A stretch of 4,202 nucleotides of DNA from a virus (lineage: Duplodnaviria > Heunggongvirae > Uroviricota > Caudoviricetes), in the IMG/VR virus record IMGVR_UViG_2541047432_000013, positions 1-4,202 of that record. One strand, 5' to 3'. Positions 1-4,202 of this stretch are shown here, piece after piece. The notes under the pieces are model-generated. The model saw only the letters and a list, made by a program, of their open reading frames with translations, searched no databases and was not told the DNA's origin. The position numbers and the translations under genes were made by a program. Position 1 is the stretch's first letter, and each line of letters opens with the position of its first letter.

Positions 1-116
1 GTCTGGCCGGTTCGGATTCGTACCTCGCAGAGGTCTTTCCTCGTTACCAGTGCCGTCACTATGACGGTTAAACAGATGACGATCAGGGCGATTAACATCG
101 CCTTTTGCTGCTTCAT
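1..116 (-). CDS. hokD: Hok/Gef-family type I toxin (small membrane-depolarising peptide); N-terminal 38 codons present, 3' end runs off the window start
   Basis: Minus-strand ATG at 116-114 translates to MKQQKAMLIALIVICLTVIVTALVTRKDLCEVRIRTGQT..., the Hok/Gef signature (hydrophobic TM segment then conserved RKDLCE). It matches HokD/RelF as I recall it; family call is firm, paralog call is from memory. AGGAG lies 9-10 nt upstream of the ATG. Confidence 0.85.
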   Translation of the reverse strand, partial: MKQQKAMLIALIVICLTVIVTALVTRKDLCEVRIRTGQ

Positions 117-173
117 AGCCTGCTTCTCCTTGCCTTTCGGCACGTAAGAGGCTAACCTACATGTGTTCAGCAT
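1..173 (-). CDS. mok-like overlapping regulatory ORF (in-frame 19-codon N-terminal extension of hok), partial
   Basis: In-frame upstream ATG at 173-171 gives MLNTCRLASYVPKGKEKQA before the Hok Met. The MLNTCR start resembles chromosomal Mok proteins (MokC, from memory). GAGG lies 8 nt upstream. No alternative-frame ORF with a start codon overlaps hok. Confidence 0.5.
   Translation of the reverse strand, partial: MLNTCRLASYVPKGKEKQAMKQQKAMLIALIVICLTVIVTALVTRKDLCEVRIRTGQ
130..158 (+). promoter_or_regulatory. Candidate sigma70 promoter for a Sok-like antisense RNA
   Basis: TTGCCT (130-135), 17-bp spacer, TAACCT (153-158) on the plus strand, antisense to the mok translation initiation region. 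The -10 is weak; this is a prediction only. Confidence 0.3.
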
Positions 174-243
174 GGATTGAGCCTCAGATTAATGTTAAGC
201 GTCTTGCAGGACGCGTAATGTTAACTGGGGCTTTTCTCTATCT
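165..243 (+). ncRNA. Predicted Sok-like antisense RNA covering the mok SD and start codon, ending in a terminator-like structure
   Basis: Plus-strand region complementary to the mok SD and ATG. Outer stem GCCTCAG (181-187) pairs with CTGGGGC (225-231) including one G-U pair; inner stem GCGTC/GACGC (199-214); then T-rich tract TTTTCTCTATCT (232-243). Ends are approximate. Confidence 0.3.
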
Positions 244-291
244 GCCGTTGGTGTTCATGCCCGAGGCAGATAGCCTCAAGCACCCGCAGCA

Positions 292-319
292 ATTCTACTT
301 AACTATCCTTTTCCCGCAA
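292..319 (-). promoter_or_regulatory. Candidate promoter for the hok/mok mRNA
   Basis: Minus-strand TTGCGG (319-314), 16-bp spacer, TAGAAT (297-292), about 110 nt upstream of the mok start, consistent with the long leader of hok mRNAs. Prediction only. Confidence 0.3.
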
Positions 320-406
320 ACCGTTTTTATCCCCAGCGGCAAATCGAATACACCACCAGCGCCACCGCCATCGCAATTCCTACCGTTGTGAATGCTTCAG
401 GCCAGG

Positions 407-964
407 TCATTGATTCACCTCCTGCGGCGGTTCTGGTAGCGACATCCAGTGGGTTGCTTGCCTAAGATCATTACCCGGACTAACTGCTATACCTCCGCGC
501 CGGAACGTGCCTCCGAGATAGCGTGCGGAATATATTAATGGCCCAGCCTCGCTATCGATATTCATCGAAATAAGCACGTTCTGGCTCTTTTCAGGCATTC
601 GCTCAGTACAGCTTATCCAGCCATCCAGAGTTATCGGAGATCTGGTTGACGTTTCCGAGATTTCCCGAAAATTGTTGGTTGACGAATTCTTATTTTCCCG
701 AAAGTTTCCGGCCTGAAGCATGGCGACGCGGCAGGCGTTCCAGCCATCAGCATATGTTTTAGTTACACCGTCGAGATGGCAGGTAAGCAAATCCATTTCA
801 TCAGGCACTACCATTGCTATCGGCTCTGCTTCCAGTGATGCCAGCGCGATACGAAACACATTAGCCAGCAGGCTGTCTGAAGACTTGTTATCGTGCGCCG
901 AGTCGCTCAGGAAGCCTGTGATGTATGATTTAATCTCCGCGCGTTCTCTGGTAATAGTGCTCAT
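407..964 (-). CDS. Phage protein with C-terminal DUF551-type domain (function unknown) and a distinct N-terminal region
   Basis: 185-aa ORF, ATG at 964 with AAGGA 8 nt upstream. C-terminus DGWISCTERMPEK...ATHWMSLPEPPQ matches the DUF551 hallmark (THWMPLPEPP) as I recall it. Its start lies 1 nt after the stop of the upstream ORF (TGATATG). Confidence 0.75.
   Translation of the reverse strand: MSTITRERAEIKSYITGFLSDSAHDNKSSDSLLANVFRIALASLEAEPIAMVVPDEMDLLTCHLDGVTKTYADGWNACRVAMLQAGNFRENKNSSTNNFREISETSTRSPITLDGWISCTERMPEKSQNVLISMNIDSEAGPLIYSARYLGGTFRRGGIAVSPGNDLRQATHWMSLPEPPQEVNQ
644..709. repeat. Imperfect 33-bp tandem duplication inside the DUF551 gene, encoding an 11-aa tandem linker repeat
   Basis: Unit 1 (644-676) GGTTGACGTTTCCGAGATTTCCCGAAAATTGTT and unit 2 (677-709) GGTTGACGAATTCTTATTTTCCCGAAAGTTTCC. 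They encode NFRENKNSSTN / NFREISETSTR on the minus strand. Near-palindromic TTTCCCGAAA cores. Confidence 0.7.
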
Positions 965-965
965 A

Positions 966-1184
966 TCAGTTTTCCTTATACGGATTAATTTTATTGTGCA
1001 GTGCGCTGAATGATTCCCATGTCACATCGGTATATAGCTCAATAACTGGTTCAAATGTCCTTCCAATTATCCAGACCAGTAATAGCGGGGATATCGGTAT
1101 CATCAACACTATAAACAGAATGAAAAACAGAAACTCTGTTGTTCTGCTCTTTCGTGGGTAATTTTTTTCTAAATAATGTTTCAT
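966..1184 (-). CDS. Small single-pass membrane protein (72 aa), AT-rich moron-like gene
   Basis: ATG at 1184. One predicted TM helix (FLFFILFIVLMIPISPLLLVWIIG) after a basic N-terminus (KNYPRKSR). About 35% GC by hand count versus roughly 55-60% in the replication genes. Confidence 0.6.
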   Translation of the reverse strand: MKHYLEKNYPRKSRTTEFLFFILFIVLMIPISPLLLVWIIGRTFEPVIELYTDVTWESFSALHNKINPYKEN

Positions 1185-1212
1185 TTCTTACCGCCCTTTC
1201 GGGCGGCCTCCT
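1185..1212 (-). promoter_or_regulatory. SD - GC hairpin - start codon arrangement upstream of the membrane-protein gene
   Basis: Minus strand reads AGGAGG-CCGCCC-GAAA-GGGCGG-TAAGAA-ATG: a perfect 6-bp GC stem with GAAA tetraloop sits between a consensus SD and the ATG. Linear spacing is 22 nt, about 6 nt if the hairpin folds. Confidence 0.45.
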
Positions 1213-1311
1213 GATGTTCTGAGGGTGCAGGAATCCCTCCGGTTAAGGATTTAATAAAAATCGTTTCTGATTTAAATCTTCAGTATTTAGTTGTTAGTTG
1301 GTTTATCGCCT

Positions 1312-1623
1312 TTATGCTTCAGCCTTATTTCGCAACCAGACACAAACCGGGCCATCTTCCGTATCATGAATGGAACCAATAAACCAGCCATCGCCCTCTG
1401 GTCGTTCCGGTTCCCATGCAGAAATATCAGCATCACACGCATCAAGGTCAGCACATCCTTCATCTCTGAAGCAGAGGACGTATTGAAGATTATTTTCCTC
1501 CATCCAGGCGTTAAACTCTTCCGTTGAAATATATTCCCGACCATCACAGAATTTTTCATATTCAGGATGCGTCCAGCAGCCATATTCATTACGTTCCACT
1601 GGCATTTCTTTAATTACGCTCAT
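1312..1623 (-). CDS. Highly acidic small phage protein (103 aa), function unknown
   Basis: ATG at 1623 with GGGGG 3 nt upstream. ATGA overlap with the stop of the upstream ORF. 16 Glu + 9 Asp versus 8 Lys/Arg (hand count), 5 Trp, 6 Cys. Confidence 0.7.
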   Translation of the reverse strand: MSVIKEMPVERNEYGCWTHPEYEKFCDGREYISTEEFNAWMEENNLQYVLCFRDEGCADLDACDADISAWEPERPEGDGWFIGSIHDTEDGPVCVWLRNKAEA

Positions 1624-1808
1624 TTACCCCCCTTATTTAATTTTCTACGACACTTTTTACAATCATCTGGACTTTCGAATGTATCCGGCTCACGCTCATT
1701 GCCAAAATACATCCACCCACCGCAAATACTTGTTATTTCACCTTCAGCAAAATAATGATGTTTTTTCGCCATAAGTGGCCTTGCCCAGCCCGGATTCGTT
1801 TTACTCAC
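1620..1808 (-). CDS. Small Cys/His-containing protein (62 aa), possible zinc ribbon, function unknown
   Basis: GTG start at 1808 preceded by AAGGAGG with a 6-nt spacer. GTGA overlap with the upstream stop. HH at residues 17-18, Cys29 and C50-x-x-C53, basic C-terminal tail. Confidence 0.6.
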   Translation of the reverse strand: MSKTNPGWARPLMAKKHHYFAEGEITSICGGWMYFGNEREPDTFESPDDCKKCRRKLNKGGK

Positions 1809-2161
1809 TTGTTGCCTCCTTTGCGAAGCTCTGCGACTAACTCGTCACATATGTGCGTCAAAGAGCAAAGTTTGATTGCTGGATGTTCGCGCACCATCTC
1901 CACACCCTGCGCCCGCAATTCTGCCAGAAAAGCGTAGGGGTCAGTTTTTTCACTGTGGTACATGGCATCATAGATAATCATTGCAGCGACACCTGCCTGT
2001 CCTGCATCTGTGACGGATATATGCTCAAGGGCTACGGCCATTGCGTGTTTCAACCTCTCATTTTCCACCTCAAGCACCACACGATTAGCCTCCAGCTCTT
2101 CTATGCGTTTTTTTGCTGCTCCCAGCTCAACACGCAGCTCCTGATAGTTAATCTCGCTCAT
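1805..2161 (-). CDS. Coiled-coil phage protein, possibly ead/Ea22-like family
   Basis: ATG at 2161 preceded by GGAGGAAGGAGA. ATGA overlap with the upstream stop. N-terminal heptad-like segment (ELRVELGAAKKRIEELEANRVVLEVENERLKH) then a globular C-terminus. Family resemblance is from memory and weak. Confidence 0.65.
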   Translation of the reverse strand: MSEINYQELRVELGAAKKRIEELEANRVVLEVENERLKHAMAVALEHISVTDAGQAGVAAMIIYDAMYHSEKTDPYAFLAELRAQGVEMVREHPAIKLCSLTHICDELVAELRKGGNK

Positions 2162-2382
2162 TCTCCTTCCTCCCGCACTGCTGTTTTATATGCCCGAAGC
2201 ACATGCGATGTTTTTCCTGACACAGTGCTTCTCAGAAAGAAAATTCCACTGGTGTTTATTACCAGATACGGGTCAGCAAGACGCAGCATATCCAGTATGT
2301 GATTATGTTTTCTTGTTTCCAGCACCGTACTTGAAATAAGCATATGTGACACGGGGCCGAAATCATGATATCTGATTTTCAT
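2158..2382 (-). CDS. Small hypothetical phage protein (74 aa)
   Basis: ATG at 2382, 21 nt after the stop of the winged-helix gene; weak SD (GGGTGA). Its stop overlaps the next start (ATGA). Supported mainly by operon context. Confidence 0.5.
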   Translation of the reverse strand: MKIRYHDFGPVSHMLISSTVLETRKHNHILDMLRLADPYLVINTSGIFFLRSTVSGKTSHVLRAYKTAVREEGE

Positions 2383-2403
2383 ATCATCACCCTGCTGTAA
2401 AAA

Positions 2404-3114
2404 TTACCCGTTATCTCCTGTCGTTATTTTCTGTATGACATCACGATGCTTATTAATTTCCCGCAGCGCGGCGCATAAGCGCTCCCACTTCTGAACCTGA
2501 CCTTTTGCCCGGCGCAGCTCGCGGTTAGCCACATGCAGCGATGGTAAAATCAGACCATCCGGATGCTTTCTGATGAACGACGACTGTGACTGCACTGTGA
2601 CCGCCACACTTTCAGTTTTAATTTCTTCCTGTGTTTCCGCTTCCCGGACTGGTAACGCAACACCTGCCGGCTGAGGAAAGGCTTTACCATCGGTTTCCGT
2701 TACCGATGCAGCTTTCGGCTCTGCCGGTAAATTATCGCCCGGTATGCAGTAACGATATTTACCGTCCTGATTTACGCGAATCAGACGACCTTTGCTGACA
2801 GCCATCGCCAGTGATGAATTCGCCCGGCGGGAGGTAATCCCGAACATTAACGCCAGTTCGTCCGCCGTTTGTGGGCCATGATGTTCAATCGCCTCAGTCA
2901 GCATTTGCGCTGTCACTTTCGGTACCGGTGACACTGGTTCACTTTCACCAGTCTGAGTCAGCCACCACATCGACCCCTTGTTATCCGCTTCACCACGGCG
3001 CTTCAGTTTCCACAGTTCGTTGACAGCATCTTCGCGGCTGATTCCAAGGCGCGATGCCACTACCTGTGAAGAGGCTTTTTTCAGTGCTTTCAGTGCGTCA
3101 AATACGGTTTCCAT
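2404..3114 (-). CDS. Phage protein with two tandem winged-helix-like (MarR-like) units and a C-terminal coiled-coil; possibly DUF1627-type
   Basis: True start is taken as ATG 3114 (GGAGG 8 nt upstream), not the in-frame TTG at 3132 used by the ORF track. Two similar units: ...[29 protein letters not shown]... and ...[32 protein letters not shown].... Occupies the position of ren in lambda. Confidence 0.75.
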
Positions 3115-3147
3115 TAATATTTCCTCCGACAAAATCGTTTCTCAGAT

Positions 3148-3810
3148 TCAAATAAAACCAGCTGCCTTCCGGCGTTCGTATTCCTGTTTCAGCCGTTCAA
3201 TTGGCGTTGGCCCTTGCGGGTGTTTCGCCCCTTCCAGTTGTCGTCGCACTGGCGGAACACTCATCCCGTTACCAACATGCTTTGCCCATTTCGTCAGTTG
3301 CCGTTCCGCAAGTCGTTTTAACTCACCTTGCGTCATCTGGCGCTCAATCCCTCTGGTACGCATTTCGAGGCAGATGTGGTACAGCACAGGCTGTGGCCAC
3401 GGGTATTTATCACTCCCGTCGTATCGCCAGGATTCATTGCGCCAGCGCCGGTACTCTTCCATCACGGCATCCACCGTAAGACCAAATGGATTTGCCCCAC
3501 TCTCCGAAATCAGCGCAACAAACTCAGCCAGGTCCGGGGGCCACGTTTCACCCGCCCGGCAGCGGTCCATGCACTGACGGCACACCAGACGGATTTGCTG
3601 TTCAGTCATCGCACCAATCTGGGCAATCCAGAGCTTCGAAGGTGCGGCCCCGTTCTTCTGAGTCCAGCGGTTCGAATACACCTCCCCCATGAGCTCCCAC
3701 AGCTTCCAGGCCGTTTCCGTTGCTGATAAATCCGTTGTCACGTTCCCACTGTTCGCGTGCAGCCCGGATTTCCTGAACTGCCCGTGATGCCGTGCCACCT
3801 GATGCTGCAT
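3148..3810 (-). CDS. Lambda P-like replication protein (replicative helicase loader); start codon uncertain
   Basis: Resembles lambda P as I recall it: TWPPDLAEFVALI versus PFLPSPGQFVAWC, and YPWPQPVLYHICLEMRTRGIERQMTQGELKRLAERQL versus YPWKSNAHYWLVTNLYQNMRANALTDAELRRKAADEL. ATG 3810 has a G-rich SD; alternative ATG at 3690 has GGGAG 3 nt upstream. Confidence 0.8.
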   Translation of the reverse strand: MQHQVARHHGQFRKSGLHANSGNVTTDLSATETAWKLWELMGEVYSNRWTQKNGAAPSKLWIAQIGAMTEQQIRLVCRQCMDRCRAGETWPPDLAEFVALISESGANPFGLTVDAVMEEYRRWRNESWRYDGSDKYPWPQPVLYHICLEMRTRGIERQMTQGELKRLAERQLTKWAKHVGNGMSVPPVRRQLEGAKHPQGPTPIERLKQEYERRKAAGFI

Positions 3811-4195
3811 GGCTTCCCCCCTTGCTGACTGGTTTTACCTGTGCCCTGACGTGCTGCACGTGGCGGGCAAATTTCTGCTCCCACTGAACCTGCGTGAAAA
3901 CCTTCCCCTCCGCCATCCAGTAATCCCGGAATGCGGCAAGCTCAGCAGGTGTAAATTCCGGCTCAGGCAGAGCCATACCCCACACTGCTGCCCGTTGTCG
4001 AAAATCCGGCGACGGCTGCCAGACAGTAGTCATCGAAAATTTCCCGATCGGTTCGCTCAGGCCGTCCAGGTATTCAGGTTCGGCTGTCTGCAACGGCGCG
4101 TCATTCGACTCACTGGTCGTAGTACTCTCGCGCGCGTTATGTGTGGGGTTTAATTCTTTATCTGTATCTGTATCTGTCGTGATTTGTCGTGACAT
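3602..4195 (-). CDS. DnaT-domain replication-initiator-like protein (phi80/Gifsy-type replication protein); 5' end may extend beyond the window
   Basis: GKFSMTTVWQPSPDFRQRAAVWGMALPEPEFTPAELAAFRDYWMAEGKVFTQVQWEQKFARHV matches the E. coli DnaT C-terminal domain ([29 protein letters not shown]...[23 protein letters not shown], recalled). Frame is open from ATG 4195 to the window end, so the true start cannot be fixed. Confidence 0.8.
   Translation of the reverse strand: MSRQITTDTDTDKELNPTHNARESTTTSESNDAPLQTAEPEYLDGLSEPIGKFSMTTVWQPSPDFRQRAAVWGMALPEPEFTPAELAAFRDYWMAEGKVFTQVQWEQKFARHVQHVRAQVKPVSKGGSHAASGGTASRAVQEIRAAREQWERDNGFISNGNGLEAVGAHGGGVFEPLDSEERGRTFEALDCPDWCDD
4160..4192. repeat. Short tandem repeats at the 5' end of the DnaT-like ORF
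   Basis: ATCTGT x3 (4160-4177) followed by GTCGTGA x2 at 10-bp spacing (4176-4182, 4186-4192). Encodes (TD)3 on the minus strand. Confidence 0.6.
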
Positions 4196-4202
4196 ATGCG
4201 TG

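Follow-up and report, generated by a model that had tools for sequence, protein, structure and literature searches.

Lambdoid phages exchange mosaic modules at conserved gene boundaries. In phage lambda, the interval from O to Q is held together largely by short gene overlaps: we counted 4-nt overlaps at 7 of its 11 junctions (6 ATGA and 1 GTGA), and the remaining junctions consist of three longer overlaps and one gap. The genes joined in this manner (O, P, Ren, NinB, NinC, NinE-I and Q) do unrelated jobs; besides Ren and NinC, they include the replication proteins O and P, the recombination mediator NinB/Orf, the nuclease NinG/Rap, the Fis-like NinH, the phosphatase NinI and the antiterminator Q. 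The ninR region of lambda has been called 'a chain of interlinked genes' (Kroger and Hobom 1982, Gene 20:25, as cited in PMC7166090).

In Escherichia coli, translational coupling has been demonstrated experimentally for overlapping gene pairs (PMC6728339). Short overlaps are 4.5-fold enriched among the genes for complex subunits in this species, and 69.6% of the gene pairs with a spacing of -8 to +10 nt code for proteins other than complex subunits (PMC10666635). The prior for a complex that can be drawn from an overlap is weaker still in a phage operon in which most junctions overlap.

Here, we analysed a 4,202-nt stretch of a viral genome (IMG/VR record IMGVR_UViG_2541047432_000013, positions 1 to 4,202; hereafter, the window), which contains four consecutive small ORFs, designated A, B, C and D, that are linked by 4-nt overlaps of their stop and start codons. 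An earlier note on this DNA had regarded the four ORFs as one translational unit, and had taken their tight linkage to imply a fixed stoichiometry and to suggest that the products act together as one accessory module of the early operon. Our analysis indicates that, with high probability, A-D are instead an ordinary nin-type chain of mosaic accessory genes in the early-right operon, the overlaps of which are no mark of joint function.

The four-gene chain and its operon

All coding in the window is on the minus strand, and coordinates are given in the 5' to 3' direction of that strand. The first gene, a DnaT-like replication gene, O, is represented by its 3' part (4195-3602; PF17948) and is followed by a lambda-P-like gene (PF06992), the PGAP-type start of which at 3609 overlaps the preceding stop by 8 nt, and by a DUF1627 gene (3114-2404), the upstream neighbour of A. 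Downstream of D, the overlap chain ends at a 127-nt spacer (1311-1185), in which a GC-rich hairpin of 7 bp (1207-1190) lies between an AGGAGG sequence (1212-1207) and the start codon of a DUF4014 gene at 1184. Short junctions also occur in the remainder of the window: the DUF4014 gene (1184-966) and a DUF551 gene (964-407) are separated by a gap of 1 nt, and an ATGA at 410-407 joins the DUF551 gene to a 27-codon hydrophobic ORF. The Rfam scan of the window identified sok alone (285-111; 113.5 bits), outside the cassette, and a hok ORF, with its start at 116, extends past the end of the window.

Matches to the window occur in prophages of thousands of E. coli genomes. In one of them, a lambdoid prophage locus of O157:H7 strain PV15-279 (L001) that carries the same cassette, the gene order is exonuclease, dicB, a LexA-type repressor, a Cro/CI family regulator, YdaT, the DnaT-like O, P, DUF1627, A, B, C, D, hokD, DUF968, RusA, Q and tRNAs. 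Across annotated relatives, Cro/CI and YdaT genes are located upstream and DUF968, RusA and Q downstream. The window thus belongs to a lambdoid E. coli prophage and covers part of its early-right (pR-type) operon, and the placement in an early operon proposed in the earlier note was borne out, with A-D co-oriented, tightly packed and located downstream of the replication genes. A scan with consensus promoters and terminators found sites no more often than in shuffled sequence, and the lone promoter-like match on the coding strand inside the cassette (1705-1678; 9 of 12 positions) is at chance level. This result fits a single transcription unit, and A-D may well be co-transcribed, as judged from their arrangement.

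The four ORFs and their three overlaps were found exactly as the earlier note had described them. ORF A (2382-2158; ATG at 2382-2380) encodes a basic protein of 74 aa (pI 9.6), ORF B (2161-1805) a protein of 118 aa with an N-terminal coiled-coil-like stretch, ORF C (1808-1620; GTG start) a basic protein of 62 aa with invariant His and Cys residues, and ORF D (1623-1312) an acidic protein of 103 aa (pI 4.14) with the conserved motif GDGWFIGSIHDTEDGPVCVWLR; the characterization of B, C and D in the earlier note as coiled-coil, Cys/His and acidic proteins was therefore apt. Stop and start codons overlap as ATGA between A and B (2161-2158), as GTGA between B and C (1808-1805) and as ATGA between C and D (1623-1620). 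Each downstream gene is preceded by a Shine-Dalgarno motif that lies inside the 3' end of its upstream neighbour, namely GGAGG at 2173-2169, 7 nt 5' of the B start; AAGGAGG at 1821-1815, 6 nt 5' of the GTG of C; and AAGGGGGG at 1634-1627, 3 nt 5' of the D start. ORF A has a GGTGA at 2391-2387, 5' of its ATG, and would be initiated de novo because its start lies 21 nt beyond the DUF1627 stop. In the PHROGs database, A matches phrog_1001 (E = 9e-24), B phrog_492 and phrog_368 (7e-24), C phrog_2358 (1e-31) and D phrog_1372 (2e-55), and the matched families are all labelled 'unknown function'.

If some of these ORFs or starts were annotation artefacts, the chain would be partly illusory. The GTG of C is the one start open to doubt, because the PGAP annotation in RefSeq places the start of C at an internal ATG, which shortens the protein to 50 aa and leaves a 32-nt gap after B. 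We regard such an error as extremely unlikely. Among the more than 30 relatives of C (64-78% identity), the N-terminus reads MSKK.GWARP or MNSLPAGWARP, and the residues between the GTG and the PGAP start are conserved. Most C homologues have an ATG where the window has the GTG, many lack the internal Met used by PGAP, the alignment of the phrog_2358 profile to C starts at residue 1, and the AAGGAGG motif ahead of the GTG is a strong one. The other three starts are also kept in relatives. A 75-aa protein that occupies the position of A in other prophages (hereafter A'; 38-39% identical to A) begins with (V/M)KILYQDYGPV against MKIRYHDFGPV in A; the N-terminus of B, MSEINYQELR, resembles the VSEINYQALRE of many Ead/Ea22-like ORFs; and relatives of D begin with (M/V)S.IKEMPV. 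The conserved N-termini, the match of each protein to a phage protein family and the Shine-Dalgarno motifs rule out the reading of the ORFs themselves as artefacts. A-D are real protein-coding genes, and their overlaps are real gene boundaries and, in that sense, not the result of chance. The overlap between B and C is real because C homologues favour the GTG position as the start, and the RefSeq start of C is probably 12 codons too short.

Ribosomes that end one ORF could re-initiate at the overlapping start or bind the internal Shine-Dalgarno motif afresh; in either case, the overlaps would save space and keep translation continuous on a polycistronic mRNA, which would be transcribed together with the replication genes early after induction. 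In this respect, the 'one translational unit' of the earlier note stands as far as anatomy is concerned, since stop/start overlaps with internal Shine-Dalgarno motifs allow coupling, but RNA folding gave no sign that coupling is obligatory. Less structure than in shuffled sequence was predicted for both the A/B and the C/D junction (z = +1.36 and +1.29, respectively), so nothing suggests obligatory coupling there, and no sign of sequestered ribosome-binding sites was detected in the folded junction RNAs.

Overlap partners and protein families

The same kind of joint recurs among relatives of these genes. In a sample of 65 viral contigs that contain a B-like C-terminal domain outside the A-D cassette, 50 of the B-like genes share 4 nt with the ORF that follows (36 GTGA, 13 ATGA and 1 TTGA). 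These next ORFs belong to 23 families, and C is the next ORF in a single contig. C homologues have approximately 15 different overlapping partners upstream and 14 downstream, and the overlap is nearly always 4, 8 or 11 nt long, while D overlaps either A' or an unrelated protein with a CPFC motif by 8 nt. Three successive 4-nt overlaps are, moreover, not unusual for phage operons of this type. Because the same overlaps are formed with many unrelated partners, they reflect the way in which genes are joined and not a shared function.

Scans of A-D against Pfam and NCBIfam yielded nothing above threshold, and no PADLOC-DB v2 family matched A, B, C or D at E <= 0.1. Searches against the sequences of solved structures, in which the query was B itself or a profile of A, C or D, returned nothing meaningful, and A has no match beyond PHROGs. 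For B, the nearest match is PF13935 (18.1 bits, E = 0.0041), which is below the gathering cut-off of 27 bits. Its N-terminal coiled-coil-like part is followed by a C-terminal domain (..AFLAELRAQGVEM..ELRKGGNK) that is common to Ead/Ea22-like proteins; the 3' third of the gene matches DNA annotated as ead or Ea22-like with 87-91% identity, and VSEINYQALRE is also the N-terminus of ORFs located behind B-like genes in other contigs. Lambda Ea22 has been reported to favour lysogeny (PMC7093339, PMC10834534). An Ead/Ea22-like developmental accessory role of B is the nearest functional lead, although a weak one.

In C, the residues H17, H18, C29, C50 and C53 are invariant, within the pattern REPDTFESPDDCxxCRRK, and this distribution of His and Cys suggests that C is a small zinc-binding protein. 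A structure model of C was too poor to use (pLDDT 47.9). A profile search collected 898 cluster representatives, most of which are stand-alone proteins of 60-75 aa that, like C itself, belong to no Pfam family; the long proteins with a C domain carry other N-terminal parts, and in one of them C is fused behind a DUF551 domain. D is a protein of Enterobacterales prophages with 151 homologue clusters. We considered a fusion of C and D as the cause of the longer PHROG profiles of both proteins, but rejected it, since none of 10 inspected D homologues that are longer (118-172 aa) than the usual length of approximately 103 aa contains a C-like part. Both C and D represent widespread phage protein families.

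Distribution of the genes and exchange between prophages

A megablast search of 5426 complete E. coli genomes detected A in 349 genomes (346 of them at >=99% identity), full-length B in 340, C in 347 and the whole A-D cassette in 332, whereas D was present in 790 genomes at 1214 places. The 3' part of B alone was found in approximately 130 further genomes, within genes annotated as Ead/Ea22-like or eae-like. About 70% of the D copies in these complete genomes occur without A-B-C, and C is possibly adjacent in at most 29%. Nearly all of the A-B-C copies reach at least 99% identity, and the examples listed are mostly of O157:H7; this pattern fits descent from one lineage. The almost constant co-occurrence of A, B and C in complete E. 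coli genomes is thus confounded by clonal descent, although on its own it would be compatible with a unit.

More diverged sequences separate the four genes further. In IMG/VR, A-B-C-D are present together in 17 contigs, in which A and B are 100% identical in amino acid sequence. Among the 79 further contigs anchored on D, none contains C and one contains a weak B-like match; 26 of the 79 hold only A', which abuts D directly, and in 47 more D-anchored contigs D comes after the CPFC protein. The approximately 30 other contigs anchored on C contain a diverged C and no match to A or D, with a weak B-like match nearby in one. Three arrangements were seen after A': D directly, an ORF of 157-162 aa with D behind it, or an Ead-like gene. 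In Salmonella, the most abundant D homologue is preceded by exonuclease VIII and RecT and followed by two small ORFs, Xis and Int; A, B and C were not found near it in this recT-xis region, which belongs to the other early operon. The neighbours of D in Pantoea are different again. No complete cassette was detected in the collection of isolated phage genomes, in which D or a piece of B occurs alone in other phages.

These results bear directly on the view that A-D form one functional module, such as a complex or a system for anti-defence or exclusion, with a stoichiometry fixed by coupling. This view can draw on the three successive overlaps with their internal Shine-Dalgarno motifs, on the presence of A, B and C together in approximately 340 complete E. 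coli genomes and on the enrichment of short overlaps among complex-subunit genes (PMC10666635), which makes the prior of the earlier note not unreasonable. Gene order provides a further argument for it: the earlier note had named independent occurrence in varying order as evidence against a module, and wherever several of the four genes co-occur, the order is always A, B, C, D. Independent occurrence was nevertheless found, with D at 1214 places against approximately 350 genomes each for A and C. Each of the four genes is widespread without the others and overlaps many unrelated partners in the same way, the co-occurrence of A-B-C represents near-identical copies of one lineage, no fusions among A-D were found, and none of them matches a PADLOC family. 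The module view, which is largely refuted by the independent distribution, is very improbable, and the fixed stoichiometry and joint action proposed in the earlier note are unsupported.

A smaller real pair within the chain, formed either by the B-type (Ead/Ea22-like) C-terminal domain and C or by C and D, is somewhat less improbable but still unlikely. Diverged C homologues were found in approximately 15 distinct contexts, and a B-like C-terminal domain (25-84% domain identity) precedes C in about 6-7 of them; D follows C with an ATGA overlap in five contexts, including one (L137) with identities of 73% for C and 60% for D. B and C are also gained or lost jointly between A-type and D-type genes. 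Viewed from the other side, both links are weak: C is next to 1 of the 65 B-like genes outside the cassette, to none of the D genes in the 79 further IMG/VR contigs and to no more than the above-mentioned share of the E. coli D copies, and the Salmonella and Pantoea D genes have other neighbours. Furthermore, Ead/Ea22-like genes are very common in this slot anyway, and the long D homologues include no fusion with C. If a B-C or C-D pair were real, the adjacency would represent a new small developmental or anti-host module of phages rather than a product of mosaic chance.

The preferred reading, a chain of mosaic accessory genes, is illustrated by the window itself, which is a recombinant. Its positions 1498-2862 (minus strand) are 100% identical to L001, whereas the sequence outside this block shows 85-94% identity to L001. 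The backbone resembles a second type of O157:H7 prophage (L002), in which a gene for a DNA-binding protein and A' replace A-B-C and the flanks are 97.6% (left) and 99.2% (right) identical. Positions 1-1569 are 99.5-100% identical to L002, L002-type sequence resumes at approximately 2863, and positions 2459-4202 are 97.6% identical to L002 overall. The left crossover is located at approximately 2861-2862, inside the DUF1627 gene, and the right crossover within 1498-1569, a stretch of 72 nt of D that is identical in the window, L001 and L002.

The block consequently contains the 3' two-thirds of the DUF1627 gene, all of A, B and C, and the initial 18-42 codons of D. The possibility that the exchanged block corresponds to the four-gene cassette was rejected, because the ends of the block fall inside DUF1627 and D. 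Since the block cuts D, homology in the flanks and not a four-gene module determined what was exchanged, which argues further against the module view. Single O157:H7 genomes can harbour both parental types of prophage (e.g. strains PA20 and HB6), and in view of this co-residence, an exchange between L001- and L002-type prophages within one cell is plausible. More generally, each gene family would move independently by homologous recombination, either at conserved gene ends or, as in the window, inside genes such as DUF1627 and D, and a relocated gene would re-form the same type of overlap with whichever neighbour it meets.

Relation to known systems

Compared with the mosaic exchange known from lambdoid phages, the window is similar in that two O157:H7 prophage types that reside together have recombined cleanly in it, and the B-type C-terminus, which stands with its GTGA or ATGA junction before 23 different genes, conforms to the same pattern. 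It differs from exchange at gene boundaries in that both crossovers of the window lie inside conserved genes, DUF1627 and D. The window thus provides a clean example of cassette exchange between prophage types that co-reside in O157:H7 genomes.

The coupled operons that encode complexes, such as trpBA and atp (PMC6728339, PMC10666635), share with A-D the 4-nt overlaps and the location of Shine-Dalgarno motifs in the upstream gene. However, those operons keep their partners across genomes, whereas A-D swap partners freely. This difference calls for caution: 4-nt overlaps are the default joint in lambdoid operons and do not constitute evidence of shared function or fixed stoichiometry. The test that counts for a module is co-occurrence across diverged genomes, and A-D fail it.

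B resembles Ead/Ea22-like proteins in its MSEINYQ.LR N-terminus, its coiled-coil-like stretch and its C-terminal domain. Unlike them, it is encoded in the early-right operon and not in the exo-xis region, and with 118 aa it is much shorter than its B-like relatives (135-223 aa).

The closest counterpart of the chain as a whole is the ninR region of lambda. Both occupy the slot of the early-right operon that follows the replication genes and precedes Q, both are made up of small ORFs, mostly dispensable and all on the same strand, that are joined by ATGA or GTGA overlaps, and in both the gene content varies among related phages. The differences concern the genes themselves: none of A-D is a homologue of a lambda nin gene according to the Pfam and PHROGs searches performed here, and the replication module of the window consists of a DnaT-like gene and P, in contrast to the O and P of lambda. 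Chains of interlinked mosaic accessory genes have long been known from lambdoid early operons, and A-D are a new instance of them.

Recombination between two prophage types

Sequence identity marks the window as a clean recombinant between two types of prophage, both of which are present within single O157:H7 genomes. The middle block (window 1498-2862) is 100% identical to L001, the O157:H7 prophage locus that carries the overlapping four-gene chain A-B-C-D, and the right flank (window 1-1569) shows 99.5-100% identity to L002, the locus in which a DNA-binding protein and A' replace A-B-C. The left flank (2863-4202) is also of the L002 type, with 97.6% identity to L002 across 2459-4202. One crossover site lies within DUF1627 and the other within D. 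In addition, the gene for the DnaT-like replication protein overlaps the P-like gene by 8 nt (ATGACTGA; window 3602-3609, minus strand), as it does in L001 and L002.

Domain and start codon of gene C

The small His/Cys domain of the C type is widespread, being found in 898 cluster representatives at E <= 1e-3, and despite this number it has no Pfam family. Its pattern in the C family (proteins P0133-P0285; P0194) is GWA.P...K.HYF...S.CG.W...DDCxxCRRK. In one fused member of this family, the domain is preceded by a DUF551 domain, and the DUF551 family is also encoded in the window, 650 nt downstream. In RefSeq (PGAP; L001 6649-6801), gene C is annotated as a 50-aa product that begins at an internal ATG. 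A GTG located 12 codons upstream of this ATG would yield 62 aa (window 1620-1808, minus strand). This GTG, rather than the internal ATG, is the probable start, as supported by homologous sequences, by the alignment to the PHROG profile and by a strong AAGGAGG motif.

Features downstream of the chain

A GC-rich hairpin with a 7-bp stem and a GAAA loop (1207-1190, minus strand; within window 1190-1212) separates an AGGAGG motif (1212-1207) from the start codon of DUF4014 (1184). Over the 136 nt that include the spacer after D (1180-1315), the predicted fold is more stable than that of shuffled sequence (z = -1.99). The hairpin might draw the Shine-Dalgarno motif nearer to the start codon, or might stabilize the mRNA. 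Further downstream, an unannotated hydrophobic ORF of 27 codons (MTWPEAFTTVGIAMAVALVVYSICRWG; 327-410, minus strand) was detected in the sequence; its ATG shares ATGA (410-407) with the DUF551 stop codon, an additional 4-nt overlap just beyond the A-D chain. A hok/sok type I toxin-antitoxin locus (1-285, minus strand) comprises sok RNA (285-111; Rfam RF01794, 113.5 bits) and a hok ORF that begins at 116 and is truncated by the window end.

B-like and D-like genes in other loci

Across 65 viral contigs (L242-L306) that carry the B-like C-terminal domain outside the cassette, the ...LRKGG.K terminus of Ead/Ea22-like genes, together with the GTGAG(T/C) start after it, precedes 23 different gene families, many of which are further Ead/Ea22-like genes starting VSEINYQALRE. 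This junction looks like a conserved joint for module swapping. The commonest Salmonella homologue of D (gene 2001-2321, L307-L311) is located between recT and xis/int, within the early-left region for recombination and excision and not in the replication/nin region.
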